A model generated the notes under the pieces. It was not told the DNA's origin, made no database searches, and was given only the letters and a program-made list of their open reading frames with translations. Both the position numbers and the translations under genes were made by a program. A stretch of 64,000 bases of DNA from Candidatus Kerfeldbacteria bacterium (lineage in GTDB: Bacteria > Patescibacteriota > Patescibacteriia > UBA9570 > XYC2-FULL-38-9), in NCBI GenBank assembly GCA_043813585.1, contig JBDRKW010000006.1:15444-79443 (forward strand). Reading direction: 5' to 3'. Position 1 is the first letter of the stretch; every line of letters starts with the position of its first letter. Positions 4,457 through 47,566 of this stretch are shown piece by piece.

Positions 4457-4464
4457 CTCTGTGT

Positions 4465-5197: not shown

Positions 5198-5395
5198 AAA
5201 AACCCGCAGACAATGCAGGCGCGGGTGACGATTCGTCACGGGACTCGCATGCTTTTTGCTCGAAAGCGTTGTCGCGATAGCAAGCGGCCTGGCTTACCGT
5301 CTTCATGACGACGGATTACAGTTGCGGCACAGCTCCGGATTCACACCGGATTCCCTTGCTGCCCCATCTACCGGGGCAAGGCATAATTTTTTAAG
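5198..5395 (-). promoter_or_regulatory. cobalamin riboswitch (aptamer plus terminator expression platform) in the 5' leader of the DUF4430 operon
   Basis: The minus-strand RNA contains UGCCCCGG..GGGGCA, AAGGGAAUCCGGUGUGAAUCCGGAGCUGUGCCGCAACUGUAA, hairpin CCGUCGUCAUGAAGACGG and AAGCCAGGCC. It is followed by a CCCGC..GCGGG hairpin plus U6 ending about 15 nt before the ATG at 5184. Confidence 0.75.
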
Positions 5396-12079: not shown

Positions 12080-12159
12080 AAGCGATGGTTTAATGGTTTG
12101 TTTTATTCACTATGCCACAGCAGGAGCGATTTGTAAAAGCATTTTTCAGATAAAAAAAC

Positions 12160-12200
12160 GAGACCGGGGCCGGCTTCGTGCGATTGATGTGATCTCTCGC
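12160..12200 (-). terminator. rho-independent terminator at the 3' end of the high-GC island
   Basis: Minus-strand RNA CGAAGCCGGCCCCGGUCUCG + U7. Confidence 0.5.
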
Positions 12201-12248
12201 TCGAAGCCGACCGCCGGTCGCTTGCCAGTCTTTGGCTACACCGCGGTA

Positions 12249-13898
12249 CTACCAGTACCGCGGACACTCGCTTGGGTCGATGCCGGGCCCCGGAGCCGCA
12301 CCGCTCGCGCACCGCGCCAGCATGTCCACCCTGTTGGTGAGCACGTTGGCGTTCCCGGTGAACGTCGAGCAGGCTCCGATGATGTCGGTCGCGGTCCCCA
12401 CCACGAAGGTGTTCGTGGGACCGTACGTGTTCCGGAGCTGAATCCTCTGCTCACCGGCCCACTTCCCCGAGGGGTTGTGGTCCAGCGTGGTGATCTTCCC
12501 CGAAGGGATGTCCACCACCGGTCCCGACATCTGGTTCCCGTACATGTCCCGACGGACCACTCGCATCCAGTTGCCCTGCCCCTCACGGATCGAGATCCGG
12601 TTGGTGCCGTTGGGCAGCTGGGTGTTGCCGCAGATCCCCACGTAGATGGGGTCCCCGCCGTCGGCCGCCATCTGCAGGTCCGCCCGCCCCACGTCCGCGG
12701 TCTCCCCCAGTCCGAGGGCGACCACGTACGGAAACGTTGCGTCCCTGCTCATGACGTACTCGACATCGCCGGCCTTGAACCCCCCGTAGAGGGCCATCAG
12801 GACGACCGTCAAGATTCCAATGCCTCCGAAGAGGAGAACGGCAGAGAGAAGCCATTCACTCTTCAGGGATCCGACTCCGATGAGCAGCAGCAGTACCGCG
12901 ACCGTGGCGAAGAACCAGGGGCTCTTCGTCATGCTGCCGCGCGAGTCCGGAGTCGCGCCCGCTGCCTGCTTCAGCACCTGGGCACCCGTTGCCACGACCT
13001 TGTCGGCCGTGGTGGAGACCGTCGGGGATCCGCTGCTGCTTCCGCTTCCGCCGTTCTTCTTCTCCTCCAGCTCCTTCTCCACGGTGGAGATGTACTCGGC
13101 AGGGTTGTCCCCGATGCGCACGCCGTGCTCCACCCAGGAGTCCATGGTGGCCTGGTGCTTCTCATCGTACTGCTGGTAGCGCACCACACCCCCGTTGCGC
13201 TCGCTCTTCTTCGACACGCGAATGCCGATGAAGGTCGGGTCACCGCTGGGGATGGTGGGGTGGTAGCGGCAGCCTTTTCCCAACCGGCCGATGTTCACCG
13301 GGTGTGCGGTATCCGTGATCTCGTCCAGAGACTCACGGGCGTAGGGGCTCACGTGGGGGCAGATCGCCACCGTCTTCTCGCCGGTCCAGGGGTTCATGTA
13401 CTGCGGGACGAGCAAGCCGTCCACAGCCGAGAAGCCCCCGACCAGGACAGAGATGACGACGAACGACCAGATGGCCACTTTGGGTGCATCGGCCACGAGC
13501 TTGAGCCAGAGGCTCGCCGCAACCGCCACACCCACCACGCCGATCGGGATAGTCGCGACCCGGAGGATCAGCGGCCATTCGAACACCGTCATCAACCACG
13601 TGATCGACCGGAACATCATCCAGTCGACCACCACGAGCACCCACAGAACCAGCAGGATGTTCCCGACCTTCTTCAAGGTCGGGGCCTGCATCTTGATGTA
13701 GAGCCCGTAGATGAGACCGACGATGCCGAGGTACCCGACCGACAGGATGATCGTGCCCAGGGTGATACCCACGGGCAGGCCGATCATCTGGGAGGTCAGC
13801 GTGATGACGTAGAAGAGGGTCGCCAACAGGCCGACCAGGACGGAGGGAATGACGTACCAGAGGTGCGCCTTGCACCAGGTTTTGATCTTGTTCAACAT
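12249..13898 (-). CDS. large polytopic membrane protein of unknown function inside the high-GC island. Cys-containing extracytoplasmic domains.
   Basis: 549 aa. About 6 N-terminal TM helices plus a central TM pair. Realistic amino-acid composition, whereas the overlapping + strand 1003-aa ORF is R/G/P/H-rich artefact. Confidence 0.6.
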   Translation of the reverse strand: MLNKIKTWCKAHLWYVIPSVLVGLLATLFYVITLTSQMIGLPVGITLGTIILSVGYLGIVGLIYGLYIKMQAPTLKKVGNILLVLWVLVVVDWMMFRSITWLMTVFEWPLILRVATIPIGVVGVAVAASLWLKLVADAPKVAIWSFVVISVLVGGFSAVDGLLVPQYMNPWTGEKTVAICPHVSPYARESLDEITDTAHPVNIGRLGKGCRYHPTIPSGDPTFIGIRVSKKSERNGGVVRYQQYDEKHQATMDSWVEHGVRIGDNPAEYISTVEKELEEKKNGGSGSSSGSPTVSTTADKVVATGAQVLKQAAGATPDSRGSMTKSPWFFATVAVLLLLIGVGSLKSEWLLSAVLLFGGIGILTVVLMALYGGFKAGDVEYVMSRDATFPYVVALGLGETADVGRADLQMAADGGDPIYVGICGNTQLPNGTNRISIREGQGNWMRVVRRDMYGNQMSGPVVDIPSGKITTLDHNPSGKWAGEQRIQLRNTYGPTNTFVVGTATDIIGACSTFTGNANVLTNRVDMLARCASGAAPGPGIDPSECPRYW

Positions 13899-13964
13899 TT
13901 CGGTATCTCCAGGCCCGGGAGCGATTGCAGCCGCCCCCGGGCATCAGTGTTGTCGTTCTGCGTT

Positions 13965-15086
13965 CTACTTGTTGTCCTTCGAGCCGGAGCCCGAGGACGA
14001 CCTGCTGCTGATCCAGGCCTCCGCGAGCGGCCGCAGGAGCGTTCCCGCGGTCGCCACAGCGGCCACCATGTTCTTGCCGGCCGGGTCCAGTCCCGCGCCG
14101 ACCTTGTTGACGACGGCCGCGGTCTCGGTAGCCGTTTCGCTGGCGGCCGACTGGATGGCCTTGGTCTTGATCCTGGTGACCTCGAGGCCGTAGTCGCGGA
14201 GGTCACCGTTGAGGAGCTGCTTCGCGTGGCTGTTAATCCGCGCGAAGTTCTCCGGGGTGTGGTGGCCGGAGTCGGTGATGATCTCCGCCCCATCAGCGCC
14301 CAGCCGGGTCAGACCGACGTTGTAGGCCGGCCCGAACAACTGCTTCACGACGTCCACCGGCTTCTTGTCGAGCCGGGTCAGCAACTGCTGCGCGATCTTC
14401 TCGTCCACCAGACCGCTGTCGGAGCGGCGGACGCGGTAGTAGACCACGCAGTCAACCTTGTACGACTCACCACCGGGGTTGACGGTGATGGTGAGCTCGA
14501 TCTGCTTTTCGGACAGGTCGATGTCGGCGTACGGCATCATGAAGAGGGGCAGCCCGATAGCCACCTGGCCGGCGCCCATGCCGTTGACCGTCCATCCGCC
14601 TTCCGAGTCGATTCCGCCAGTCAAGACGTTTCGGAACACGCGGACCTGATCGGCGGGCAGCATCCGCAAGTGGCTCTTGCCCCTGGCGTCGGACACGATC
14701 TCGCTCGTGATGAGCGTCGTGTCCTCGCCGCTGCCGGTGGTCGGGGTCGCGGAGCCGCTGCCGCTCTTCTCCGACTTGTCGCCCTTGCGACCGAAGAAGA
14801 GGTAGACGGCCAGCGCTCCGGCCGCGATGAGGCCGAGCAGCAGGACGATCAGACCGAGGATCCAGCTCAACGCGCCCGTGAGCGCGCTGAGGATGACCAC
14901 CGCGTTGATGCCGATGGTGACCAAGACCTTGCGCTTGGTCGTCCACCAGCTGTCGCTGCTCTCGGTGGGCGGGGTGGGGGCGGTCGGCGGGGTTCCGCCG
15001 GTCGAACCGGTTGAGGTTGCGGGGGCGCTGGAGGGCGTGGTGACGCCCATGTCCAGCATGTCGATTCCCGAGTGGTCGATTTCCAT
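13965..15086 (-). CDS. SPFH/band-7-like membrane protein with S/T/P/G-rich termini, inside the high-GC island
   Basis: Single N-terminal TM. The core ...IELTITVNPGGESYKVDCVVYYRVRRSD...DYGLEVTRIKTKAIQ resembles the SPFH fold. The assignment is tentative. Confidence 0.45.
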   Translation of the reverse strand: MEIDHSGIDMLDMGVTTPSSAPATSTGSTGGTPPTAPTPPTESSDSWWTTKRKVLVTIGINAVVILSALTGALSWILGLIVLLLGLIAAGALAVYLFFGRKGDKSEKSGSGSATPTTGSGEDTTLITSEIVSDARGKSHLRMLPADQVRVFRNVLTGGIDSEGGWTVNGMGAGQVAIGLPLFMMPYADIDLSEKQIELTITVNPGGESYKVDCVVYYRVRRSDSGLVDEKIAQQLLTRLDKKPVDVVKQLFGPAYNVGLTRLGADGAEIITDSGHHTPENFARINSHAKQLLNGDLRDYGLEVTRIKTKAIQSAASETATETAAVVNKVGAGLDPAGKNMVAAVATAGTLLRPLAEAWISSRSSSGSGSKDNK

Positions 15087-15711
15087 TTCGAACTCCCTTT
15101 TCTGTGTTCGACCCGGTCGCTTGCGCGCCGGGAATTCTGTTCAGTGGTTCGGGTTCTCGTGACCTAATGTGTCAGAAATGCCCAATGCCTTTGTATTGGT
15201 AGTTTATTGTATAGCCTAGACTGTCAAAGTTCGCCGTTTGTCTTACTGCGTTCCGCGCAAAAAGCGCAAATCGCAGAAGAGGACGAACGGTGAATCGTGA
15301 AGTCAAAAATTTGACCGCACCATTCACGGTTCGTTCCAAAAAGAGAATCCTCCCTCCATATATTGTAGGCAAGTCGAATCTCTCTCCCCGGTTTTGAATG
15401 TACTCTCTCCGTCATTAAATGACCCAAAATATTACACCAAAACAACACATTTGTCAAGGGTACGAACCGGCTCCAAACGTACCTTTTGAACGAAAAAAAA
15501 TACGCTAACATAAGCAAAAAACATCCATAGAAGAACAAACGCTCCTTGCCGGCAACATATGCTGCGCGCGCTCCATACGATAACCACCGCCCAACAGACC
15601 AACCGCAATCCGAGCTCTCAACGTCGACCGCGTCACTAACAAAAAACGGGAACCCATTGTTCCACGCTTTTTCCATGTTCCACTTTTTTCCGGCCTTCGC
15701 GTCAAGACCTA

Positions 15712-17565
15712 TTACTCGGTCGCGTCGGGCGGAATCTGCATATAGTTCACCAGGTATTGCGCCATATCGCTAAACACCGGCGCAGCTGAAGCGGCCGACC
15801 ACAACACGTCCTTTGGTTCGTCAATCTTCACCAGAATCACGAACTGCGGGTCAGACACCGGCCCGTACCCCACAAACGTATCTTTATGCCGATTCGCGTC
15901 ATACCCTGCACCGTTCCCTTTTGGAATCTGTGCCGTTCCGGTCTTGCCCGCCATGTGGTAGCCGTCCACCTCTGCCAGGATGGCATGCCCGCCTTCCACC
16001 ACGCGCACGAGCATGGCGGAGATCGTCCGCGCAGTCGGTTCGGACAGCGGCTGCCCCGCCACGACCGGTTCGGTTTGTTCCTGGTATCCGTTTGACTTTA
16101 CCACGCGGTCAACAACGTACGGCTTCATCATTGTACCGCCGTTTGCGAGCGACCCGAACGCCTGGATCAGCTGCATGGGCGTGACGGTCAGCCCCTGGCC
16201 ATACGACGACGTGGCGCTGTAAATATCGCGCTCCTTTGCAACGCCGGAGATGTCTCCGCTTTGTTCGCCGTCCAGTTCAATCCCGGTCGCCTTCCCAAAG
16301 CCGAAGTTCCTCACGTAATCATGCCACTTCTCATTGCCGACCTTCTGCACCACAAAAATCGAACCGGTGTTCAGCGAGTCCTCCAGCACCCTGGTCATGT
16401 CCACCACGCCGTTGGCTTTGCCGTCCGAATTATGGATCGTATACTGGCCGATCTCCACAGAACCGGTATCTTCATAGGTCGTGTACGGGCTCACTAGGTT
16501 CTCGTTAAGGCCGGCTGACATGGTAAACGACTTGAACACCGAGCCCGGTTCGTACTGATCCGCGATCGCATCATTAATAAACACCTTGATGTCTTCGACG
16601 TCCCCGTAGTTATTCGGATCCCAAAGGGGCGCATTGCAGAGCGCCTTTATCGCTCCGGTGGAAGGGTCCATCACGATCATCGTACCCTGGTTTGCGCTGT
16701 GCTTCTCTACTGCCGCAGTGATCAGCGAACAGGCCTTGTACTGGATATTCTTATCAATCGTCAAAATGAGCGTATCGCCGTCTTGTGCTTCCACAATTGA
16801 TTTTTCACCGACCGCGATAAACCGGCCGGATGCATCCAGCTCTGTCGACAGCGAACCGGCCTCCCCGGCCAGCCGGCGGTTGAAATACCCTTCAAGGTTA
16901 TACTGCCCACGGCGCTGCTCATCGACAAAGCCCACAAAACCGGTTACTGACGAGGTGACGTCTCCCTCCGGATAATAGCGCGTTTCCTCCGGCGACCAGT
17001 GGATGCCGTCCAGTGCCTGCTCTTCAATGACCTTCTCGAGCGCTTCCAGTTCCTGGTCAGATACCTGATGCTTCAGCGGTTCATACACGTCTTCGGGCTT
17101 GGTCAGGCGCGACAACACCACTTCCGGATCCATCCCCAGAATCGGCGCTATCGCATCAGCCGTTTTCTGCGCATCCAGAACCTGCCTGGGGTTCGCATAC
17201 ACGTGCTGCAGCGTCCGGTTCGTGGCAATCATCGTAATGCCGGAATCGGCATAGTCATCCTTTGCATAGATCTCGCCGCGTTCCGGCAGCAGCTGCTTTA
17301 CCAGTTCATGCTGCCCGCTGGCCAGCGCCGCATAAAATGAATGGTCGAGAACCTGGATGATAAACAGCCGCGCGGACACCAAAAACCCTGCCAATACGAA
17401 CACCCCCATCAGTATCTTCAGCCGGTCAGCATCGACAAGTGCCGAAAACCGCGAATCGGATCCGTTTCCGCCGCGCTTTGCCCGCGCATTCCGCGCGCCG
17501 CTCTTCCGTGTTGTTGAATAGAATCGATTCATAGCCGGAGCGTACAAAAAACATGCCGTTTGCAT
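15712..17565 (-). CDS. ftsI: penicillin-binding protein 2 / FtsI-type peptidoglycan D,D-transpeptidase
   Basis: N-terminal TM, a PBP dimerisation domain and a transpeptidase domain. It sits in the dcw cluster downstream of ftsL. Confidence 0.8.
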   Translation of the reverse strand: MQTACFLYAPAMNRFYSTTRKSGARNARAKRGGNGSDSRFSALVDADRLKILMGVFVLAGFLVSARLFIIQVLDHSFYAALASGQHELVKQLLPERGEIYAKDDYADSGITMIATNRTLQHVYANPRQVLDAQKTADAIAPILGMDPEVVLSRLTKPEDVYEPLKHQVSDQELEALEKVIEEQALDGIHWSPEETRYYPEGDVTSSVTGFVGFVDEQRRGQYNLEGYFNRRLAGEAGSLSTELDASGRFIAVGEKSIVEAQDGDTLILTIDKNIQYKACSLITAAVEKHSANQGTMIVMDPSTGAIKALCNAPLWDPNNYGDVEDIKVFINDAIADQYEPGSVFKSFTMSAGLNENLVSPYTTYEDTGSVEIGQYTIHNSDGKANGVVDMTRVLEDSLNTGSIFVVQKVGNEKWHDYVRNFGFGKATGIELDGEQSGDISGVAKERDIYSATSSYGQGLTVTPMQLIQAFGSLANGGTMMKPYVVDRVVKSNGYQEQTEPVVAGQPLSEPTARTISAMLVRVVEGGHAILAEVDGYHMAGKTGTAQIPKGNGAGYDANRHKDTFVGYGPVSDPQFVILVKIDEPKDVLWSAASAAPVFSDMAQYLVNYMQIPPDATE

Positions 17566-33889: not shown

Positions 33890-35917
33890 CTACCGGTGGA
33901 CGAACTGGGCCTTGACCCGCGGACCGTTCGTCACGAAGTTCGTGAGGCCGATGATGTGATCCTTGGTCTCACCACACCTACCGGACGCCTTGGCTTCCTC
34001 CATGAGGCCCTCCGCGAGCGGTTTCTCGATGCCGCGCATCACCACGCCCACCAGGATGTCGTCGATGGCCCGCGAGCGATGCCCGATGTCTACCTGCAGC
34101 GGCGCGTCCGGGATGAGGCTCGGCTTCACCGGCCTGGCGTCCATCGGCTTCATCTTGAAGGTGGACGCCCCGTGGGTCAGGATCATCTCCCTGGCCCACT
34201 TCATTGGATCCAGGTTGATGGCGTCGGCCCACCCATATTCCAGTGCGGTAACCGCGCCGATCGCCACGCCCGCGCGGAGCATCTGGAGCGCGCGATCCAC
34301 GCCCACCAGCCGCGGAAGTCGCTGGGTGCCGCCGTACCCGGGAATGATGCCCAGGTTGACCTCGGGCTGGCCGATCGCGGCGTCCGTGCTGATGACGCGC
34401 TTCCAGCACGCCATCGCCATCTCCGCGCCGCCGCCGAGGCAGAGCCCCTTGACCACGGCCACGACCGGCTTGGACATGGCTTCGATCTGGAGGGTCAGCA
34501 GCTGGCCGGCGCGTGGGAACTGCGCCATCTCATCGGGCTTCCCGCGCAGGTCCGCCAGCTCGGTCACGTCAGCTCCGGCGAGGATGCCGTTGAAGCCGGT
34601 GAAGATCACGCCCTTGACGGAATCGTCGCCATCGAGCTGCTTGAAGGCCATCGAGAGCTCCAGGATGGTCGCCGCGTTGAGCGGGTTCACCGGCGGCCGG
34701 AACACGGTCACGGTCGCGACACCGCTACTGTCGACGTCCACCTTGACGTTCTTGTAGACCTGCGGCAGCTGGCCGTCATCCGGAATCCTGTCGCTCTCGA
34801 ACAAGGCGGGCGGTTCGTAGTTGATGAACCCGTCGTTCACGGCGGCATCGAACCAATCGAACAGGTTGGCCGCACCGGCGTGGCTCATCATCTCCACTAC
34901 GCCCTTGTTGAACGCGAGCGCAGTGCGGGAGATCCAGTTCAGGTCGAACGCGCTGACCACGCCCTTCTCGAGCAGGTGCAGCGCCAGGCCGGCGAGGTAG
35001 GCCTTGCACACCGACGCGATCTTCTCGTACATGACCCCGTCGATCTGCTCGTCCTCCTCCGAGGCCTCCCGATGGTTGTACCACGGCGTCGCGTCCTGGG
35101 CGCGCATCATCGCGGTCATCGGATCATGGAGGCCGAACAGCCCGGTCTGCGCCCAGTACTCCAAGCACTCAGCCGTGAGGTTGTTCGCGTTCGGGATGAG
35201 GATGTGAACCAGGAACACCCCGCCGCCGCCGATCTCCCGATTGAGGACGTTGTTGACCTGGCGAGGCGTGCCCCAGTTGGCGTTCACGAGTCCGCACGCG
35301 CAGTCCATCATCCCGCAGAACAGGATGTTGCCCGCAAACAGCGGGCTGTCCGCCACGTGCACCGGCACCTTGCCGAGCCGGCGCAGCGTCTCGTCCGCAC
35401 GCGCAGTCATCTCGGGGTTCCGGGACGCCGTGAGCTCCATGACCGGATTCTTCCACGCCGGGAAGAACGGGTGCATAACGAAGCACCTCTCCTTGTACAT
35501 CGAGTCGCGCGCGATCTCGCTGCACGGCAGCGACGACGTCGTGAACCCGATCAGGCAGTCTGCCGGCACCAGCTCCTCGGTCTGCGCCAGGATCCGCCGC
35601 TTGAGCTCCAGGTTCTCGGTCGCGGCCTCGATCACCAGGTCGAAGTCGGTTCGGCTCTGCGGACCGCCCTTGAGCGAATCGCTGAACTCGAAGCACGACA
35701 GGATTTGCGACTTCACCGTCGCCGACATCTTCCCGCGCGCGTGGCCCTTCTCGGCTAGCTGCAGGATCTCCTTCTTGGCCGACTCAAGCACCCTCGCGTT
35801 GATGTCCGCGAGCACGACGCAGCAGTCGCCCTTGAGAGCCGTCGCGAACGAGTACGCCAGCCCTCTGCCGATGGATCCGGCACCGATGATTCCGATCAAA
35901 AACTCTTTCTGTATCAC
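33890..35917 (-). CDS. bifunctional 3-hydroxyacyl-CoA dehydrogenase / enoyl-CoA hydratase (FadB/FadJ-like, dehydrogenase domain first). High-GC gene.
   Basis: NAD-binding IGIIGAGSIGRG, HPFFPAWKNPVMEL motif, crotonase VAVVKGLCLGGGAEMAMAC. The opposite strand carries a 688-aa R/H/P-rich artefact ORF. Confidence 0.75.
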   Translation of the reverse strand: MIQKEFLIGIIGAGSIGRGLAYSFATALKGDCCVVLADINARVLESAKKEILQLAEKGHARGKMSATVKSQILSCFEFSDSLKGGPQSRTDFDLVIEAATENLELKRRILAQTEELVPADCLIGFTTSSLPCSEIARDSMYKERCFVMHPFFPAWKNPVMELTASRNPEMTARADETLRRLGKVPVHVADSPLFAGNILFCGMMDCACGLVNANWGTPRQVNNVLNREIGGGGVFLVHILIPNANNLTAECLEYWAQTGLFGLHDPMTAMMRAQDATPWYNHREASEEDEQIDGVMYEKIASVCKAYLAGLALHLLEKGVVSAFDLNWISRTALAFNKGVVEMMSHAGAANLFDWFDAAVNDGFINYEPPALFESDRIPDDGQLPQVYKNVKVDVDSSGVATVTVFRPPVNPLNAATILELSMAFKQLDGDDSVKGVIFTGFNGILAGADVTELADLRGKPDEMAQFPRAGQLLTLQIEAMSKPVVAVVKGLCLGGGAEMAMACWKRVISTDAAIGQPEVNLGIIPGYGGTQRLPRLVGVDRALQMLRAGVAIGAVTALEYGWADAINLDPMKWAREMILTHGASTFKMKPMDARPVKPSLIPDAPLQVDIGHRSRAIDDILVGVVMRGIEKPLAEGLMEEAKASGRCGETKDHIIGLTNFVTNGPRVKAQFVHR

Positions 35918-36023
35918 GGTCTCTACCTCCCTGTTGTTCGTTTACCGATAGTTTCAATTCGAAAAAGAGCAGATACGCTCCTCTCGTAAACCGACGACCA
36001 TCATAGCATGCAAAACTGAGAAG

Positions 36024-37420: not shown

Positions 37421-38257
37421 TTACAGCGCGAGTGACTCAAGAATGTTATCAAGAATATCTTCATCAGTATCAGAGATGCCGGTAGTTGATACTGTAGGAT
37501 AGGTTCGTGATGAAGCCATGATCGTCATGATGTAATCACCAACTGCGATTCGATGTCCAACATTAGGCTCATCAGCTGCATCAGTCTGATTCTTTCCAAA
37601 GAAGATATCAGTCTTGTTTGTGCCTTCGCCATGATAGGTCTTCTCTGTCACTTTTGCACCAGCAATATCTAGCGATACAGTCTTTGTACTGATTTCGCTG
37701 TAGCCAATTCCTGTTCGGAACCAGGTTATCATCGAACTGTCATTCTTGTCGCGATAACACACAGTCATGAACGTATTCGTTGACTGAAAAAGAAGACAGA
37801 ACCCCCCTTTTTCAACTACCCGATTTTCATCAGCATCATATACTTGCTCCTTCACTTCCCAATCGCTTGGATAGTGCCACGTCAACCCATATTTCGTATC
37901 CGTATACGTGCTCCAACCTTCGTATGCGCTGTCCGCTTCATCAATCGTTACGTCATCAAGAGTTGTCTCATCTTCGGTTGTAACCTCAACCGCATCCCCG
38001 TTCTCGTCAAACAACTCCAACGAGGTGTCGCCCTGGCAATCCTGGATCGTCTTCCGACAATCAGAAAGCGCGTCCGTGCAGGATTCAAAGTTCGTCTGCA
38101 GCGTTGAAAATTGATTTTCCAACTCCGTAATCCGGACATCATATTCATCGTCATTTGCAGAGACCTGTACGGAAAAGAAAAGATATGCGGCAATCGCAAC
38201 GACCAGCGCCGAAACTGTCGCCGCAATTGTAATTGGTAATGTGTTCGATTGTGCCAT
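37421..38257 (-). CDS. hypothetical membrane-anchored secreted protein
   Basis: N-terminal TM (LPITIAATVSALVVAIAAYLFF) followed by a coiled-coil and beta-rich domain. Confidence 0.45.
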   Translation of the reverse strand: MAQSNTLPITIAATVSALVVAIAAYLFFSVQVSANDDEYDVRITELENQFSTLQTNFESCTDALSDCRKTIQDCQGDTSLELFDENGDAVEVTTEDETTLDDVTIDEADSAYEGWSTYTDTKYGLTWHYPSDWEVKEQVYDADENRVVEKGGFCLLFQSTNTFMTVCYRDKNDSSMITWFRTGIGYSEISTKTVSLDIAGAKVTEKTYHGEGTNKTDIFFGKNQTDAADEPNVGHRIAVGDYIMTIMASSRTYPTVSTTGISDTDEDILDNILESLAL

Positions 38258-38399
38258 ATTTGTATTTAATTATTTCCTCTATAAAAATAGCACAAATCGG
38301 CATTGTGGAAAAGCATGCCTGTGTTGCGCTTATCCCCCGTTGACTTTGTGGGTGCCAGGAGTAAAGTATGAAAAGTATGAATTTTATAACTTCGACCCT

Positions 38400-38663
38400 A
38401 TGCTAAGCAACGAAAAAATCGACGTGTACGGTACCGGAACAGTCGGCGAAAAAGGACAAATCGTCATTCCGGCGGCCGCGCGCAAGGCCATGGGCATCAA
38501 CCCTGGCGACAACTTCATCTTTTTCAGCCACGGCCCGCTTATCCACATGGTCCGCGCCGACCAGCTGAACGAACTGATCGACAAAGCGACGAAAAAATTC
38601 ACCTCGCACTTAAACGGACTGAAAGACGCGCTGCAGCAGCCGAATAATACAAAAAAGAAATAA
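38400..38663 (+). CDS. AbrB/MazE/SpoVT-family DNA-binding protein
   Basis: GTVGEKGQIVIPAAARKAMGINPGDNFIFF is a swapped-hairpin (SpoVT_AbrB) motif. Start at MLSNEK. Confidence 0.55.
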   Translation: MLSNEKIDVYGTGTVGEKGQIVIPAAARKAMGINPGDNFIFFSHGPLIHMVRADQLNELIDKATKKFTSHLNGLKDALQQPNNTKKK

Positions 38664-41061: not shown

Positions 41062-42726
41062 CTAGCCGGAGTTTGACGAATCAAACGTGCTTGTTGCCAG
41101 GTCCCAGACGTTTGCCAGCTCCTCTTCCGGCGGCTGTTCAATATTGGATTTCTCCTTGCTCGCCTGGGCTGCGTATTTTGAATCAATATCAACCTGGATC
41201 GAAATCGGCCGGCCGAACACTTTCTCGAACACATCATCGATCACCTTGCGGTTGCGCAAATCATTCAGCCGGTCTTCATAAAACTTATACTCATACCCCA
41301 TGGTGATCTCGCCGTCTTCATACGAAACCAGCTGCCCCACCTTGAACGTCAGGTGCAGTGCGTGGTTGGCGCGCTTCATCTCCTTTAATAACGTTGTCCA
41401 CTTTTTTTGAATGTAATCCAAAGAAACCTCCCGCACCGGTGCTGATGATTCAGCAAATCCCGGCTCCTGCTCCGGAGCCGCTACCTCCCGCTGCGAAAAC
41501 GATGCTGCAGGAGATGCAGGTTGCGGCGGAGCCGGCTCGATTGGATGTTGTGTGTCAGACCCGCCGGCACCTGATGAACCGGGCGCGGACGGCGCGTCAT
41601 CTTCCGGAACGTCTGCCGGTGCAGCCGGGCTGCCATTTCCCGCAGCGAGCTTGATCACTGCCAGTTCAAGCGGAAGCTGCGGAATGGCCGCTGCCTTCAA
41701 CTGCTCTTGTGCCTCTAAAAATGCCTCGAGCATCCTTGATATTTCGAGCGCATCCTTCTGCTGCGCCAGTGTCGTAATTTTTCCGATGTCCTCCTTGCTC
41801 AAATCAAGGTACTGCAGCGGAACCAGCGACTGCTGCACCACGTGCAGCAGCACCTTCCGTAAAAATTCAATCATGTCCTTTGTAAAATCATTCAGCATCA
41901 CCCCTTCTTCCAGCAGGCGGTTGATGCGCGATATGCTGTTGGACGCCTGGCCGCGGACAATCTCTTCCCATAACCCCACCACCTCGGACATGTCAGATCG
42001 CGGCAGCACAATCTCGGCCATCTCCGCCGTAATCTGTTTTTCATCAAGCGACAGCACCTGCCCCAATAGACTTTCGGCGTCGCGCAGTGCGCCTTCCGAA
42101 CGCTTGGCAACGGCATGCAGCACCTCGTCGTCAACGCGCTTGCCTTCAGCCGTCACCAGCTTCTTCAGCCGCCCGACCATGTCGTCAAACGAGATCTTCC
42201 GGAAATTAAAACGCTCACAGCGCGAAATGATGGTTGCCGGCACTTTATGGATCTCGGTCGTCGCCAAAATGAACATCGTACGCGATGGTGGCTCTTCCAG
42301 CGTCTTCAACAGCGCATTAAACGCGGATGTCGACAGCATGTGGACTTCATCAATAATAAACACCTTCCACTGCAGCACAGACGGCGCCACGCGCGCATTA
42401 TCAATAATATTTTCGCGGACATTATCCACGCCAGTGTGCGACGCCGCATCAATTTCTACAATATCAAGCGCCTTGTTCTCGTGAATAGAGCGGCAGTTGA
42501 TGCATACATTGCACGGCTCGCCGTCTTTCAACTGTTCACAGTTCACTGCACGCGCCAACAGCCGCGCCGTGGTTGTTTTGCCGATGCCGCGCGGGCCGGA
42601 AAAAAGGTACGCATGCGCAACCGCGCCGCTCTTCAGCTCATTTAAAAGCGTCTGGCGGACATGATCCTGCCCGACTAGGTCGAAAAAGGTCTGCGGACGG
42701 TATTTTTGGTAAAGCGATGTGGCCAT
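41062..42726 (-). CDS. dnaX: DNA polymerase III subunit gamma/tau
   Basis: YRPQTFFDLVGQDHV...GPRGIGKTT, zinc module CEQLKDGEPCNVCINC, and SRC-like motif. Confidence 0.9.
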   Translation of the reverse strand: MATSLYQKYRPQTFFDLVGQDHVRQTLLNELKSGAVAHAYLFSGPRGIGKTTTARLLARAVNCEQLKDGEPCNVCINCRSIHENKALDIVEIDAASHTGVDNVRENIIDNARVAPSVLQWKVFIIDEVHMLSTSAFNALLKTLEEPPSRTMFILATTEIHKVPATIISRCERFNFRKISFDDMVGRLKKLVTAEGKRVDDEVLHAVAKRSEGALRDAESLLGQVLSLDEKQITAEMAEIVLPRSDMSEVVGLWEEIVRGQASNSISRINRLLEEGVMLNDFTKDMIEFLRKVLLHVVQQSLVPLQYLDLSKEDIGKITTLAQQKDALEISRMLEAFLEAQEQLKAAAIPQLPLELAVIKLAAGNGSPAAPADVPEDDAPSAPGSSGAGGSDTQHPIEPAPPQPASPAASFSQREVAAPEQEPGFAESSAPVREVSLDYIQKKWTTLLKEMKRANHALHLTFKVGQLVSYEDGEITMGYEYKFYEDRLNDLRNRKVIDDVFEKVFGRPISIQVDIDSKYAAQASKEKSNIEQPPEEELANVWDLATSTFDSSNSG

Positions 42727-42806: not shown

Positions 42807-43454
42807 CTATTCCCCGTCCGGCGCAACCGGTGCCGGAAGCTCCATTTCATCGCCCAGCGGCAGCTCTGCTGACGCGCCCTCAAGCTCTTCGTATTCATCC
42901 AAATCCGGCTCTGCAGCGCCCTTAATGATATTCTCAACCGCCGCCCATTTGCTGTCCATATCCTCCGGAATCAGCACAATCACCGTATCCCCAGGCTCGC
43001 CTTTGAAATAGGTCACGCTTGCCGTCAACAGACGGAATGTATGCCCATTCTTGGCAATCACACGGAACGCACCGCTGTCGTTTCGCACCAGGCGGCCGAA
43101 CTGCCGCTTGCGCGTGACCGGGCCGATCTGCTTATAAATAAAACTGCCGTCCGGTTTGATGGTCAGCTTCATGATATCCCCCTCTACCAGCTTGGATTTG
43201 CTCGCGTAGTTTGCCGGTACCGTATATATTTTCCCGTCCGGACCGACCATATTCTGGCCGTCGAACACGCCCTCGATTATTGATTCATCGCCGTTTGCTT
43301 CAGCGCTGCCGACCTCTGCCGCTTTCTCCCTGGCCGAACGCAATTCATCAACGGGTCCCAGCTCTGCGACATACTGTTTTAAAGCATCAAGCTGCGTTTC
43401 GATATTTTCGATCATCTTATGCAGCTGCTCAAGCACGTTGTTTTCGTCTGTCAT
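42807..43454 (-). CDS. hypothetical protein (N-terminal coiled coil, C-terminal acidic tail)
   Basis: 215 aa with no recognisable motif. Confidence 0.4.
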   Translation of the reverse strand: MTDENNVLEQLHKMIENIETQLDALKQYVAELGPVDELRSAREKAAEVGSAEANGDESIIEGVFDGQNMVGPDGKIYTVPANYASKSKLVEGDIMKLTIKPDGSFIYKQIGPVTRKRQFGRLVRNDSGAFRVIAKNGHTFRLLTASVTYFKGEPGDTVIVLIPEDMDSKWAAVENIIKGAAEPDLDEYEELEGASAELPLGDEMELPAPVAPDGE

Positions 43455-43517
43455 ATTGTCTTTTTATTTTCTTTTTTGCCCCCATATCATAGCGCGGGCG
43501 AGTAAATTAGTAAAGAC

Positions 43518-43545
43518 CAAAAAACCCCTCGTTTAAGGGGCTTGT
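43518..43545 (-). terminator. rho-independent terminator after the 106-aa acidic protein gene
   Basis: Minus-strand RNA GCCCCUUAAACGAGGGGUUUUUUGG. Confidence 0.55.
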
Positions 43546-43565: not shown

Positions 43566-43886
43566 TTATACCGCCATCTGGTCGATCTTTTCGATAACAA
43601 TATGCTCCTCGTCCATCAGCTTTTTCAGCCCTTCCGTGTCCTTATTAGTTATCAGATCCTTTTTCTGCTTTACAATATCGACAATCGCCCGGATCTTTGC
43701 CGGATTATCCATAAAATATTCAATCGCAACCTCGCGCTGGCCGTCAGGCATTAAATCCAATACACGGAAAAAAACATCCTGGTCTCTTTTACCAAGCCCT
43801 TCAAATGGATCAGTTGGGATCATCTCCTCTTCATCCCCCAGCTCCTCATCCATATCTTCCCAGGTATCGTCTAAATAGTCCCCCAT
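43566..43886 (-). CDS. hypothetical small acidic protein
   Basis: 106 aa, D/E-rich N-terminus. Confidence 0.4.
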   Translation of the reverse strand: MGDYLDDTWEDMDEELGDEEEMIPTDPFEGLGKRDQDVFFRVLDLMPDGQREVAIEYFMDNPAKIRAIVDIVKQKKDLITNKDTEGLKKLMDEEHIVIEKIDQMAV

Positions 43887-43911
43887 AAGGTTCTTCTGTC
43901 GTTACGGTAAA

Positions 43912-44163
43912 TTATTCACCCGACTGGCGAGATGCCAGCTTCGCCTCCCATGCTTCTCGGCCGCGGTTCGGGTCGCCTTCATCCAGGGCTGCCGAATGCG
44001 CAGAACCGAAAATGCTCGCGGTCAGCTGCCCGCGTTCACTCTCCCCCAGCTTTGAATAGTGCTTCCATGTAGTTTCCGGGTTGGAAAGCAGGAATGCCAC
44101 TTCGTCCGTGGTCAGGCCGTTCGCCCGATCTACAGACGTTGTTTCTGGTGCTCGTTCTCGCAT
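43912..44163 (-). CDS. hypothetical small protein
   Basis: 83 aa. A perfect TTGACA -35 lies upstream on the minus strand at 44254-59, but the -10 is weak. Confidence 0.35.
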   Translation of the reverse strand: MRERAPETTSVDRANGLTTDEVAFLLSNPETTWKHYSKLGESERGQLTASIFGSAHSAALDEGDPNRGREAWEAKLASRQSGE

Positions 44164-44290
44164 AGGATGTATTGATTCTAACGTATTTTATTAATGGAGA
44201 CAATTCTTCGCTAACCTCAGTAACGTATTGGGTTTATCACACATTTTTGAATTTGTCAAGCCCTATGCGGTTCTAATACGCCAACATTAG

Positions 44291-46828
44291 CTAAATAAAC
44301 GCATCAGGTCCTAGTGAATGCGTTGCGCCCAATTTATCAAGCTGTGCGCGTTCTTTAATATCATCTTCCACCTCTTCGCGCGGACGCCCATATTTCAGGC
44401 GCGACAGCTCCTTGAGAGTTTCTATCAGTTTCGGGTCGCCCTCGGGCGGCATGATTGTCGTCATGTTAAACGGCCTGGAAGCGGTGTTTTCAATCAATAA
44501 TTTCATGTTCGCGGTATATTTTTCCACATTGATGATATCGTTCTCATCAAATACCGGTTCAAACTCCTTCACCAATACCTCAGCGTCCTCCGCACCCACG
44601 CGGAACGCGAGCATAGTGCCGGCATTGCCGAATACGGCATCCCGCACTTTTGCGTCATTATTCACGACCAGTTGGCTGACATACTGGTGGGCCATGATCA
44701 TATTCAGCTTATATTTTCTGGCTTCAGATAAAATGATTGCAATCGAGTCCGTGGCAAAATTCTGGAACTCATCCATGTAGAGGTAGAAGTCCTTGCGCTG
44801 CTCTTTCGGTATATCAGCGCGCGCCATGGCCGCCATCTGGATCTTCGTGACTAGAATCAAGCCAAGCAGAGATGAGTTCACTTCGCCGATCTTGCCTTTG
44901 GACAAGTTCACCAAAAGAATCTTCTGGTTGTCCATCACCTCGCGAAGGTTGAACGCGGAATCTTTCTGGCCGATGATATTGCGCATCATGTCATTCGTCA
45001 GGAACCGTCCGATCTTGGAAATGACATACGAAAGCATATCCGCGGCCTGCTGCCCTGCCTGCGACTGCTCATATTCCTGCTCCCAGAAATTCTTCACGAT
45101 CATGTTCTTCACATTCGCGACCTTCTCTTTGCGGAACGTATCGTCCGTAAACATGCGCGGAATTTCCACCAATGTCGCGCCGGCCTCCTTGTCCTCCATC
45201 AGCGCCAGCATGGCGTTGCGCATGTAGTGCTCAAACATAGGGCCGATCATCTCTTCGCCGAACAGCTTGTAGAAAATCGCCACCATCTCCTGCACCGCAA
45301 AATCCTTCTGCTCGTCATTCTCGTATTCAAGCATGTTCAAACCCATCGGCCGCGACGTATCGCCCGGATCAAAATAGATCACATCGTCCGCGCGCTCCTT
45401 TGGGATATGCTTCATTACGTCCTCTACCAGGTCGCCGTGCGGATCGATAATCGCCACGCCCTCGCCGTTTTGGATGTCCTGGATGGCGCAGTACTGCAAA
45501 AAGACGGATTTACCGGAACCGGACTTACCGATCACATACATATGGCGGCGGCGGTCATCGCGCCTGATGCGCACCTCTGTCTCCGCACCGCGGTATTCAA
45601 TTTTACCGAGGATGATCCCCTCTTTCGGCATGTTCGACGGCGGCGGCGACTTGCGGGACAGGAGCCAGCGGATATTCGGTGTTTCCGTGTTTGTCAGCGG
45701 CAGGTGCCACAGCGACGCCATCTCTTTCGTGTTCAGCACATAACTGCCTTTCTCGTTGAAATGCCTGTAAATGAAATCCTCAATCAGCTCCTCGTCGCTC
45801 GACGGCTTGCTGGCAATGAATTTATTGCCGTACTGGTAGCCGGTATATTGGGTGAATGCGTTCAGTATATTGGTAAGCTTCATGGTCGCGAGCTCTTTGT
45901 TCGCAGCCGACACCACCACGCGGATATTCACGTCAAATCCGGACTTGCTGGTTTTTTCCTCCAGCATTTTCACGACCTCCTCTTCCATGGGCGACAGTTT
46001 GTATTCACGTTCCGTCTGCGGATCAATGCCCTGCCCTTCTTTGTTTTTGCCACGTGACAATCCCTTGCTGAATTCACGTATCACTTTGGAAATGGGATTG
46101 CCTGTTACTTCTGCCATCGCCTGGTCAAGCCGCTTCCCCTGCTGCATGGTTTGCGCGACTTTCACCGGCAGTCTGTGCCATTCCGGACGGGCCGAGCGCA
46201 GCACAATCTGGATGGCCGCGCCTTCTTCCTTTGTAAACTTCGACATTACGTTCGTAATCGAGTTCAGCGGATCAGATTCCATCTTGTCATAGGAGTTGAT
46301 CGCAAAAATCTGGCTCTTCTCCAAACGCAGCCGGGAACCGACAATCACGCCCTGCGGTTCAAAAATATTGTAATCTTCAACCTCAATGATTTGCGCGGAT
46401 TCGTACTGCGCCTGCAGCTGCTGTTCAAAATATTGCCGCATATACCGCGGGACCGCCGCATGAAACGTTACCAACCCATCACAGTCGGCAACTATCTCCA
46501 AAGAAAAATGGTCGGTACGGCCATACAGCCAGGCCTTAAATCCGCGCTGGGCTTTCACGCCGCCCATAGTCGCAAACAGTACTTCAGCAACCGAGATGCG
46601 CTCCTGCACCTGGTCGCGCGTCAGCTCCTGCTGCCCGCCGCCTTCTTCCTGGCTCTCCTTCGGAATCGTAACTTGCAGCACCACCATCTGGAACGCGCGC
46701 GGCTTGCGGAGGCTCTTCCGGATAATCGCACGCACGACAAAAAGCGCGGCAATCAAAAGTGCAACCGAGACCGCGATATACGCCCCGATCAGTACCAGTA
46801 TGTTGAGTCCGGCTATGAAATCGAACAT
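44291..46828 (-). CDS. membrane-anchored FtsK/HerA-superfamily ATPase, VirB4/TraC-like (type IV secretion/conjugation-type)
   Basis: N-terminal TM. About 400-aa N-domain. Walker A GKSGSGKS near residue 420. Walker B YLYMDEFQNF. ARKYKLNMIMAHQ motif as in VirB4/TrwB-type ATPases. Confidence 0.55.
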   Translation of the reverse strand: MFDFIAGLNILVLIGAYIAVSVALLIAALFVVRAIIRKSLRKPRAFQMVVLQVTIPKESQEEGGGQQELTRDQVQERISVAEVLFATMGGVKAQRGFKAWLYGRTDHFSLEIVADCDGLVTFHAAVPRYMRQYFEQQLQAQYESAQIIEVEDYNIFEPQGVIVGSRLRLEKSQIFAINSYDKMESDPLNSITNVMSKFTKEEGAAIQIVLRSARPEWHRLPVKVAQTMQQGKRLDQAMAEVTGNPISKVIREFSKGLSRGKNKEGQGIDPQTEREYKLSPMEEEVVKMLEEKTSKSGFDVNIRVVVSAANKELATMKLTNILNAFTQYTGYQYGNKFIASKPSSDEELIEDFIYRHFNEKGSYVLNTKEMASLWHLPLTNTETPNIRWLLSRKSPPPSNMPKEGIILGKIEYRGAETEVRIRRDDRRRHMYVIGKSGSGKSVFLQYCAIQDIQNGEGVAIIDPHGDLVEDVMKHIPKERADDVIYFDPGDTSRPMGLNMLEYENDEQKDFAVQEMVAIFYKLFGEEMIGPMFEHYMRNAMLALMEDKEAGATLVEIPRMFTDDTFRKEKVANVKNMIVKNFWEQEYEQSQAGQQAADMLSYVISKIGRFLTNDMMRNIIGQKDSAFNLREVMDNQKILLVNLSKGKIGEVNSSLLGLILVTKIQMAAMARADIPKEQRKDFYLYMDEFQNFATDSIAIILSEARKYKLNMIMAHQYVSQLVVNNDAKVRDAVFGNAGTMLAFRVGAEDAEVLVKEFEPVFDENDIINVEKYTANMKLLIENTASRPFNMTTIMPPEGDPKLIETLKELSRLKYGRPREEVEDDIKERAQLDKLGATHSLGPDAFI

Positions 46829-46837
46829 CCTCCCGTG

Positions 46838-47461
46838 TTATTTGATATCTATATCTACCCGCGAACGCTGCTCTTTTTTTACCCTGGCCTGGAGCTTCAT
46901 GATGTCGTCGGTTTTCAGCTTCGTCTCCTGCTCCAGGAAATATTTATTCACCCGCGGGATGGTCGAAAGCCAAAGGCGGATGGCATCGAGCACTTTGCGC
47001 GCTGTTGCTTTGAACTGCGTGACCATAACCTCAATCTTTCCGGCAGCTTCCTCCCCCGCTATGCGAAACTGCTCCTGCTCCTGCGGCGTCATGCTCGCAT
47101 ACACTTCTGCCAGGCCCTCTGATAAAACCTCTTCAATTTCCTGGCGGGTTTTTGACTTGGCCTGCGGAGCTGCGGGTACGGCCGGCGCCTGCTGCTGGCC
47201 TGCCGGTACTGCGCCCGCCGAAGGCAGCGGCGCTGCTTCCGGCACCTGCCCCTCCTGAACCTGCGGTGCCTCCTGCACTGGGCCGGTATCCGGTAACGGA
47301 ACCGCTTCCGGGGCTATTGGCTGCTGTTCCGGAGCTGTCGATGCAGCTTCTTGAGGCATTCCCTGTTCCTGCGGCAACGCTACGCCAACACCAACCCCGG
47401 GCCGCAAAGGCTCCACTGGTTCAGTTGATGTTTTTTTCTGTCGTTTGAATAGCGCTGCCAT
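46838..47461 (-). CDS. hypothetical Pro/Gln/Ala-rich protein, co-oriented 10 nt upstream of the VirB4-like ATPase
   Basis: Start at MAALFKRQ. The low-complexity N-half and conserved-looking C-terminal 90 aa have no TM. Confidence 0.4.
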   Translation of the reverse strand: MAALFKRQKKTSTEPVEPLRPGVGVGVALPQEQGMPQEAASTAPEQQPIAPEAVPLPDTGPVQEAPQVQEGQVPEAAPLPSAGAVPAGQQQAPAVPAAPQAKSKTRQEIEEVLSEGLAEVYASMTPQEQEQFRIAGEEAAGKIEVMVTQFKATARKVLDAIRLWLSTIPRVNKYFLEQETKLKTDDIMKLQARVKKEQRSRVDIDIK

Positions 47462-47566
47462 GCCAGGTTGTCCTGATTCATTAACGGGATACAATATAGC
47501 ATAAATTGGACAATTCGGCAACAACGCCACTTCCGTAAAAACGCGAATTTTGGTACACTTTGCAAT

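Follow-up and report, generated by a model that had tools for sequence, protein, structure and literature searches.

The locus and the family of its ATPase

The stretch analysed here (the window) is 64,000 nucleotides (nt) of DNA from a Candidatus Kerfeldbacteria bacterium of the Patescibacteria (contig JBDRKW010000006.1, positions 15,444 to 79,443), and the subject of this work is an 845-amino-acid (aa) ATPase encoded in it, together with the neighbours of its gene. Patescibacteria are tiny, host-dependent bacteria that live attached to host cells and account for a large share of bacterial diversity. The window is a piece of ordinary chromosome, with genes for a penicillin-binding protein, a histidine kinase, PepA, SufB, an ABC transporter, DnaX, CorA, CysS and DnaJ/DnaK, two tRNAs and a cobalamin riboswitch, and the GC content at the ATPase locus (0.51-0.53) was equal to that of the adjacent DNA. 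The genes of interest lie in the order cysS/corA, a 207-aa protein, the ATPase, a 215-aa protein with two predicted oligonucleotide/oligosaccharide-binding (OB) folds, and dnaX. A first-pass annotation of the locus had described the ATPase as VirB4/TraC-like, that is, as an ATPase of a type IV secretion system (T4SS), with three smaller proteins around it; all four open reading frames (ORFs) it named were recovered by ORF calling on the minus strand, at the coordinates given in Table 1.

Hidden Markov models, a PDB sequence search and BLAST agreed on the family of the 845-aa protein, and we therefore assign it with high confidence to the type IV coupling proteins (T4CPs; VirD4/TraD/TrwB family) and not to VirB4. 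In Pfam, TrwB_AAD_bind matched residues 421-748 at 35.1 bits (cut-off 20.5), TraG-D_C scored 27.2 bits (cut-off 22) and DUF87, a model generic to the ATPase superfamily, 27.6 bits (cut-off 23.2); homologues of the protein also have T4SS-DNA_transf (PF02534). The NCBIfam matches were VirD4-like CD1115 (3e-16), TraD (1e-14) and VirB4_CagE (1e-3), and the sole sequence match in the PDB was TrwB (E 7e-7). A Foldseek search with the predicted structure retrieved TrwB (E 2e-8, target-normalised TM-score 0.57), along with Cag-beta, DotL and HerA. CagE_TrbE_VirB and TraC_F_IV, the Pfam families that the first-pass annotation had suggested searching beside DUF87, gave no match at E<=0.1, and the VirB4 models of NCBIfam stayed far below their cut-offs (TIGR00929, 17.3 bits against 643; TIGR02746, TraC-F-type, 17.6 against 567). 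The placement among T4SS ATPases thus stood, while the family within them changed from VirB4 to T4CP by Pfam, NCBIfam and hhalign. FtsK/SpoIIIE and HerA helicases, also considered at that stage, were not supported either. FtsK_SpoIIIE (PF01580) reached 13.7 bits (cut-off 24) and was confined to the Walker A region, the FtsK alpha-domain, gamma-domain and 4TM-region families of Pfam had no match at E<=0.1, HerA_C scored 13 bits against a cut-off of 22, and no NurA or Sir2 partner was found by Pfam or PADLOC.

The AlphaFold2 (AF2) model of the ATPase (pLDDT 74.8) consists of a transmembrane (TM) helix, an alpha/beta N-domain, a RecA-like domain and C-terminal helices, and a TrwB-like all-alpha insertion is modelled at residues ~505-633 inside the RecA-like domain (405-790). 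The N-terminal TM segment reported earlier was confirmed as one long hydrophobic helix by Kyte-Doolittle analysis and by AF2; it is followed by RKSLRKPR, which by the positive-inside rule would lie on the cytoplasmic side. Precomputed Pfam data placed DUF8128 (PF26449) over the N-terminal ~350 residues of the identical protein P0001 and of nearly all listed homologues. The domain occurs in 1,593 clusters (50% identity) at E<=1e-3 and starts near the N-terminus, mostly at about residues 40-90 among the proteins listed. Translation verified Walker A, Walker B and the ARKYKLNMIMAHQ motif (residues 703-715), all three of which had been read correctly from the start, and most of their residues were invariant or nearly so in an alignment of 32 homologues, including G434, G437, G439 and K440 of Walker A and D686 and E687 of Walker B.

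Relatives were also found outside Patescibacteria, as tblastn with the ATPase against plasmids returned 284 records in Streptomycetaceae, Bacillota and archaea. The homologue on the Embleya plasmid NZ_CP108778 is an 812-aa T4CP (WP_331738717) with 30% identity over residues 355-814 (E 5e-64), whose N-domain is also collinear with that of the window ATPase (E 4e-7). It lies in a row of genes for a TrbL/VirB6-like protein, PrgI, XF1762, VirB4 (TraC_F_IV, AAA_10, P-loop_TraG), the T4CP, Replic_Relax and NlpC/P60; hhalign of the window ATPase against the VirB4 of this cluster aligned the ATPase domain only (E 5e-6). On the 65-kb Bacillus subtilis plasmid CP120602, a 913-aa 'DUF87' protein (23% identity, residues 109-815, E 3e-34) is encoded upstream of TcpC/TcpD/TcpE. 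The DUF8128 region aligned with the N-domains of both proteins. Since the Embleya and Bacillus homologues occupy the T4CP place in T4SS or conjugation clusters, a DUF8128-like N-domain joined to a T4CP ATPase is a coupling-protein type of monoderms that coexists with a separate VirB4. A reading of the Bacillus plasmid as pLS20-like was rejected; the putative VirD4 of pLS20 has 786 aa and two TM segments and is followed by an extended VirB6. Among the archaeal matches, the giant proteins of haloarchaeal plasmids aligned with most of the window ATPase, part of the N-domain included; in a 2,407-aa protein of Halorubrum plasmid pHAR01 (L085, 7689-14912), for instance, the N-terminal part aligned to residues 108-773. 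The plasmids matched by the window ATPase were nearly all typed 'non-mobilizable'.

Table 1. Positions of genes, protein domains and putative signals at the ATPase locus (window coordinates)
Feature	Coordinates	Strand	Basis or remark
Candidate promoter of the two-gene unit (207-aa gene and ATPase gene)	47493..47521	-	TTGCCG, 17 nt, TATATT, TG before the -10; putative function
207-aa upstream protein gene	46838..47461	-	ORF call; NCBI call P0241 has the same start
845-aa ATPase gene	44291..46828	-	ORF call
Single N-terminal TM helix, residues ~7-39	46712..46810	-	Kyte-Doolittle; AF2 helix 10-39
Alpha/beta N-domain, residues ~45-400, DUF8128 (PF26449)	45629..46696	-	Precomputed Pfam; AF2
RecA-like nucleotide-binding domain, residues ~405-795	44444..45616	-	Pfam TrwB_AAD_bind; PDB TrwB; Foldseek TrwB
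Walker A GKSGSGKS, residues 434-441	45506..45529	-	Translation
Walker B YMDEFQNF, residues 684-691	44756..44779	-	Translation
Perfect -35 hexamer TTGACA upstream of the 83-aa gene	44254..44259	-	Sequence; -10 partner weak
83-aa acidic protein gene	43912..44163	-	ORF call; lineage-specific insert
106-aa acidic protein gene	43566..43886	-	ORF call; insert restricted to the closest relatives of the window
Terminator-like hairpin (9-bp stem) and T-run after the 106-aa gene	43522..43543	-	Hairpin scan
Promoter-like site TTTACT, 17 nt, TATGAT before the 215-aa gene	43486..43514	-	Consensus scan
215-aa coiled-coil/double-OB protein gene	42807..43454	-	AF2 pLDDT 89; beyond the range of the first-pass annotation
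dnaX (DNA polymerase III gamma/tau)	41062..42726	-	Downstream neighbour; L001 counterpart has DNA_pol3_delta2 and DNA_pol3_gamma3

Distribution, paralogous clades and conserved neighbours

More than 7,400 homologues of the ATPase were scored, and identity among the best 120 listed was 53-78% along the entire protein. A homologue was present in at least 597 species-representative genomes, and the record titles named Uhr-, Magasanik-, Doudna-, Falkow-, Staskawicz-, Morani-, Berkel-, Peregrini- and Gracilibacteria, Paceibacterota and Saccharimonadales. A published survey had counted 5,713 T4CP homologues in 2,918 of 3,035 Patescibacteria genomes, only 148 of them near virB4, and VirB4 in 2,417 of the same 3,035 (PMC12102498); among the Kerfeldbacteria, VirB4 was found in two of the four assemblies shown from the published table. 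In a neighbour-joining tree, the ATPases of all 81 related loci that we compared fell with that of the window into one clade (P1), apart from a second clade (P2), and plasmid T4CPs stood outside both. On sequence grounds P1 and P2 are paralogues that arose inside Patescibacteria, and the motif Y[IVM]DEFQN[FY] is common to both. The two genes are adjacent in L057 (1128-6163) and L060, and in L054 (9992-17329), L055 and L058 they are separated by the OB protein gene and a 346-aa gene, with P1 first and P2 last. By Pfam the 346-aa gene of L054 encodes a sigma70_r4 and HARE-HTH protein, and L055 and L058 also have a member of this gene's cluster before P2.

To describe the gene neighbourhood, ORFs were called and clustered in the 81 related loci. 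A homologue of the 207-aa protein was encoded upstream on the same strand in 34 of the 81 (31 of the 71 with enough upstream DNA), in most of them 0-19 nt from the ATPase gene; in the window the ATPase gene starts 9 nt past the stop of the 207-aa gene. The 207-aa protein has a Pro/Gln-rich, presumably disordered N-terminal half and a conserved C-terminal part of ~100 residues with an isoelectric point (pI) of 8.9. Kyte-Doolittle analysis showed no TM segment in it, and neither Pfam nor NCBIfam gave a match. The earlier description of this protein as Pro/Gln-rich and without TM segment was therefore right, and only its length had to be changed, from 208 to 207 aa. At the upstream position of 12 further loci, a family of ~135 aa was found. 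Treating both as one family was rejected, as hhalign found no homology; they are alike in design only, each pairing an N-terminal part that is charged or disordered with a small C-terminal domain that is conserved. Of the 59 loci with enough flanking DNA, 27 encoded a homologue of the 215-aa protein downstream in the same orientation, and the dnaX cluster came next in 20 of 52. Other recurrent neighbours were CysS, CorA, AspRS, a class II tRNA synthetase, TGT, DnaX and GyrB. P1 is thus a vertically inherited core gene of the chromosome, set among housekeeping genes.

The two small proteins encoded between the ATPase and OB protein genes had been put forward as members of the cluster. Both are indeed acidic (pI 5.1 for the 83-aa and 4.2 for the 106-aa protein), but as partners of the ATPase they were rejected, with homologues in 0/81 and 2/81 loci, respectively, and none added by jackhmmer; it is the 207-aa and 215-aa proteins that recur. 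For the 83-aa protein no family was matched in Pfam, NCBIfam or PADLOC either, and the 106-aa protein has its homologues in L001 and L002, the loci closest to the window. The two genes are lineage-specific inserts. In L001, a Kerfeldbacteria locus, a gene for a 1,433-aa beta-helix protein lies in this gap as well. A promoter of their own was partly borne out: the -35 hexamer is perfect, but it is paired with a weak -10 element, and in place of this pair (TTGACA at 44259-44254) the consensus scan picked TTGTCT/TAGAAT at 44203-44175. The terminator that had been noted after the 106-aa gene was recovered as a hairpin with T-run at 43543-43522. The candidate promoter at 47493-47521, ~30 nt upstream of the 207-aa gene, has 9/12 consensus matches, and sites of this quality were only ~2x commoner in the scan than in shuffled sequence.

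VirB6, VirB8, relaxase and pilin genes, the absence of which had been noted in the first pass, were indeed not found by Pfam in 28 window proteins (a part of the window's ORFs), and neither was VirB4; VirB3 was likewise not found there near the ATPase gene, and no T4SS gene was seen around the 81 related loci. A complete T4SS locus contiguous with the ATPase gene was thus found neither in the proteins scanned nor in the relatives. The loci of Peregrini-/Peribacteria or Gracilibacteria L059, L062, L066, L076, L077, L080 and L081 (two of them labelled only 'bacterium') have peptidoglycan hydrolase genes (3D domain with PG_binding; Peptidase_M23 with SLH) downstream of P1. They are the sole envelope-related neighbourhood seen and give a weak hint of a trans-envelope role.

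The 215-aa protein belongs to a family of at least 8,000 members, all annotated as 'hypothetical' and none with a Pfam domain. In its AF2 model (pLDDT 89), a 30-residue, coiled-coil-like N-terminal helix and a short helix are followed by two OB-type barrels (residues 50-111 and 115-177) and an acidic disordered tail, and several members of the family end in acidic-hydrophobic tips like those of single-stranded DNA-binding protein (SSB) tails. Foldseek matched the model to IF1/eIF1A with probability 1.0 and target-normalised TM-scores of 0.64-0.72, though with weak E values (2e-3 to 1e-2), and eIF5A and the coiled-coil/double-OB module of Mpa were also among the weak matches. At the sequence level, Pfam and PDB profile searches gave noise only (MazE 0.02, DotY 0.12), and tblastn against plasmids found nothing.

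The genetic data available for S. epibionticum link these families to essentiality. Transposon sequencing (Tn-seq) scored SEML1_0293, which has the TrwB_AAD_bind layout, as non-essential, and SEML1_0294 (sigma70_r4 and HARE-HTH) precedes it (PMC10633639). By synteny, SEML1_0293, the 't4cp' of the literature, appears to have the P2 arrangement. A second T4CP-like protein, SEML1_0142 (1,019 aa), was scored essential in the same screen; an essential 139-aa gene (SEML1_0141) precedes it, and gyrB (SEML1_0145) lies three genes after (PMC10633639). The P1 gene of L070 (Saccharimonadales; 1,108 aa) has small ORFs before it and gyrB after it, and because this gyrB-side synteny is shared, SEML1_0142 would be the P1 counterpart. 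SEML1_0404 (171 aa), with two ECOD 'nucleic acid-binding' domains, was essential at later time points (PMC10633639). It lies two genes upstream of dnaX and is, by synteny and annotation, the probable counterpart of the 215-aa protein. The annotation table of PMC10633639 gives UniProt entries named '50S ribosomal protein L7/L12' as the top structural matches of SEML1_0404, a label that is probably a misannotation spread through the 215-aa family.

Proposed role and alternative explanations

Our preferred reading, to which we give about an even chance at best, is that the window ATPase serves the Patescibacteria T4SS as a coupling ATPase encoded apart from it. In S. epibionticum the T4SS is essential, and its gene cluster includes no protein recognisable as a coupling protein (PMC10633639); the simplest candidate for the energiser or substrate receptor of that system would therefore be an essential T4CP encoded elsewhere, as P1 may be. 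The ATPase would form a membrane-anchored hexamer and use ATP to recruit a substrate, protein or nucleic acid, and to push it into the T4SS, which is encoded elsewhere with VirB4, VirB6, VirB8, PrgI and VirB2-like pilins in a cluster lacking a coupling protein. The 207-aa protein would serve as its adaptor or regulator, as CagZ, TraM and IcmSW do for other T4CPs, and the coiled-coil/double-OB protein, judged by its model, might bind the cargo or nucleic acid or cap the ATPase ring. Such a role would fill a gap: the sole genetically tested species depends on its T4SS, for which a coupling protein is still to be assigned, and the single T4CP homologue that the literature discusses is non-essential. 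If P1 is the essential paralogue, it becomes the obvious candidate for the missing part.

Several observations weigh against this assignment. No T4SS gene was linked to the ATPase gene, either in the scanned window proteins or, across the 81 loci, among the neighbour families that recur; the genes conserved around it encode replication proteins (dnaX, gyrB) and tRNA synthetases rather than envelope functions. T4CP homologues occur in more genomes (96%) than VirB4 (80%), a gap which may partly be due to incomplete metagenome-assembled genomes. The protein stands outside the specific T4CP subfamilies of NCBIfam, whose equivalog cut-offs were far off (59 bits against 250), and it has one TM helix where classical T4CPs have two. 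The core of the 215-aa family is mildly acidic (median pI 5.45), which is atypical for a nucleic-acid binder. We infer the orthology of SEML1_0142 with P1 from synteny and annotation only, and the OB counterpart of S. epibionticum stays with dnaX, not with the ATPase gene.

The strongest rival draws on the same observations. The ATPase could be a T4SS-independent motor, exapted in the ancestor of Patescibacteria for a core membrane transaction of nucleic acid, for instance with single-stranded DNA or RNA, the double-OB protein and the replisome taking part; we consider this possible, though on the whole unlikely. It would fit the lack of T4SS genes beside the ATPase gene in all 81 loci, the synteny with dnaX (and with gyrB in Saccharimonadales), the recurrent coiled-coil/double-OB neighbour with its SSB-like tail tip, the prevalence gap between T4CP homologues and VirB4, and the essential scores of the probable orthologues SEML1_0142, SEML1_0141 and SEML1_0404. 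The authors of the survey also stated that exaptation of the orphan T4CP homologues could not be ruled out (PMC12102498). However, all characterised relatives act with a T4SS and the closest homologues outside Patescibacteria lie inside T4SS clusters; housekeeping synteny is common in small genomes and need not imply a shared function; the OB core is not basic, and the OB gene lies apart from the ATPase gene in S. epibionticum. A fuller version, in which P1, the upstream protein and the double-OB protein form a Patescibacteria-specific essential membrane machine no longer serving a T4SS, seems to us rather doubtful. Equally doubtful is the mechanism it suggests, with an OB ring, as in Mpa, capping or feeding the hexameric motor, which would move nucleic acid or protein for a process tied to replication. 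If P1 does act alone, a conjugation ATPase would have been taken over for a housekeeping role, and the resulting machine would be one of the few that define the phylum. The ATPase, the small upstream protein and the unannotated double-OB family can be named as testable proteins under either reading.

A motor for DNA uptake is decidedly improbable. In that case the ATPase would pull transforming DNA through ComEC and the OB protein would bind the incoming strand. Patescibacteria are naturally competent and reliant on imported nucleotides (PMC10633639), the FtsK/HerA/T4CP superfamily includes DNA importers, a weak CedD match to the ATPase was obtained (1e-5, limited to the Walker A region), and an OB-fold neighbour is present. 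The difficulty is that ComEC, ComF and DprA are dispensable in S. epibionticum (PMC10633639), while the probable P1 orthologue is essential; moreover, no com or type IV pilus genes were found near the ATPase gene in the scanned window proteins or among the recurrent neighbour families.

The locus was first interpreted as encoding a VirB4/TraC-type ATPase that works with the small proteins flanking it in a reduced secretion machine; this reading is now very unlikely. It was prompted by the layout, a ~400-aa N-domain followed by the ATPase, and the top Foldseek matches of the full model were indeed full-length TrwK/VirB4 chains (E 4e-12, ~925 columns), although with a TM-score of only 0.30; the isolated VirB4 C-terminal domain scored worse (6.5e-6), and the N-domain may resemble that of VirB4. 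At the family level no VirB4/TraC model scored, the Embleya T4CP aligned far better than the VirB4 encoded beside it, conservation is lacking in the 83- and 106-aa proteins, and VirB3, VirB6 and VirB8 were not found nearby. The broader first-pass idea, a reduced machine for secretion or for handling DNA in episymbiotic bacteria, may still hold. An FtsK-like segregation translocase that replaces or supplements FtsK is just as hard to sustain. The membrane anchor, the FtsK-HerA superfamily and the replication-gene neighbours would suit it, but FtsK_SpoIIIE remained below cut-off, and S. epibionticum already has a canonical FtsK (SEML1_0096, essential, with all FtsK domains), which makes replacement unlikely.

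A decaying remnant of an integrated conjugative element, as first suggested, or an anti-phage defence ATPase of the HerA/mad8 kind can be given next to no weight: although the protein is of plasmid type, has no T4SS around it and matches PADLOC mad8 (8e-13, restricted to the ATPase domain), the gene is intact with invariant Walker residues, its homologues are widespread and conserved across Patescibacteria in syntenic housekeeping contexts, its GC content is like that of its surroundings, and no integrase, relaxase or defence partner was found among the scanned window proteins by Pfam or PADLOC. The defence candidate was rejected as a generic mad8/HerA match to the ATPase domain without any PADLOC partner match.

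Elsewhere in the window, a cobalamin riboswitch (5266-5391, minus strand; 43 bits, above the Rfam gathering score) lies directly upstream of two genes (4465-5184 and 2858-4489, minus strand) for DUF4430 proteins with hydrophobic N-termini. DUF4430 is presumably akin to the B12-binding domain of transcobalamin and intrinsic factor; if this kinship holds, the arrangement would represent B12-regulated capture of B12 at the cell surface of a small-genome bacterium. Two islands (12000-16000 and 34000-36000) are GC-rich, with 0.59-0.65 against about 0.52 elsewhere, and may have been acquired horizontally. One encodes a FadB-like 3-hydroxyacyl-CoA dehydrogenase/enoyl-CoA hydratase fusion (33890-35917, minus strand), and the other contains two long ORFs with no Pfam match (12249-13898 and 13965-15086, minus strand). 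A small ORF (38241-38663, plus strand) with an SpoVT/AbrB-like motif, GQIVIPAAARKAMGINPGDNF, read by eye, is located just upstream of the ABC transporter pair.

Comparison with known systems

The nearest known systems are the Embleya and Bacillus plasmid T4CPs, which share with the window ATPase the two-domain layout, the all-alpha insertion and the Pfam set TrwB_AAD_bind, TraG-D_C, DUF87 and T4SS-DNA_transf. Their genes lie in T4SS clusters, with VirB4, PrgI, VirB6-like, relaxase-like and hydrolase genes or with TcpC/D/E, whereas the window ATPase is chromosomal, phylum-wide, unlinked to T4SS genes and accompanied by Patescibacteria-specific neighbours. TrwB of R388, VirD4 and TraD likewise combine a RecA-like domain and an all-alpha domain with an N-terminal membrane anchor, at ~17-20% identity to the window ATPase in structural alignments. 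They differ from it in having two TM helices instead of the single one predicted here and in their linkage to relaxase or T4SS genes, and in the window ATPase a further cytoplasmic domain, the N-domain of ~350 aa, separates the anchor from the ATPase part. VirB4, TrwK and TraC resemble it in overall size, in the N-domain and ATPase layout, in belonging to the same ATPase superfamily and as the best full-length Foldseek matches. The window ATPase lacks membership of their families at the sequence level and has no VirB3, VirB6 or VirB8 neighbours, and in the Embleya cluster the genuine VirB4 is separate from the homologous T4CP.

The 215-aa protein recalls the N-domain of Mpa/ARC, where two OB barrels likewise come after a coiled coil (Foldseek E 4e-3, probability 0.96, 145 columns), and it resembles SSB in its disordered tail with an acidic-hydrophobic tip. 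In contrast to both, it is a separate small protein not fused to an ATPase, shows no sequence similarity to them and has a core pI of ~5.5.

By annotation, the window ATPase is one of the orphan Patescibacteria T4CPs of Quinonero-Coronel et al. 2025 (PMC12102498). That study pools the orphan T4CPs and, for S. epibionticum, cites the non-essential copy, whereas two clades are separated here and the window clade maps by synteny to the essential SEML1_0142; the recurrent trio with the OB-fold protein is a further addition. A likely mix-up of the P1 and P2 paralogues in the literature is corrected by this distinction. The family itself was known by annotation and had been briefly noted before; the P1/P2 split, the link to an essential copy and the trio with the double-OB protein are new.

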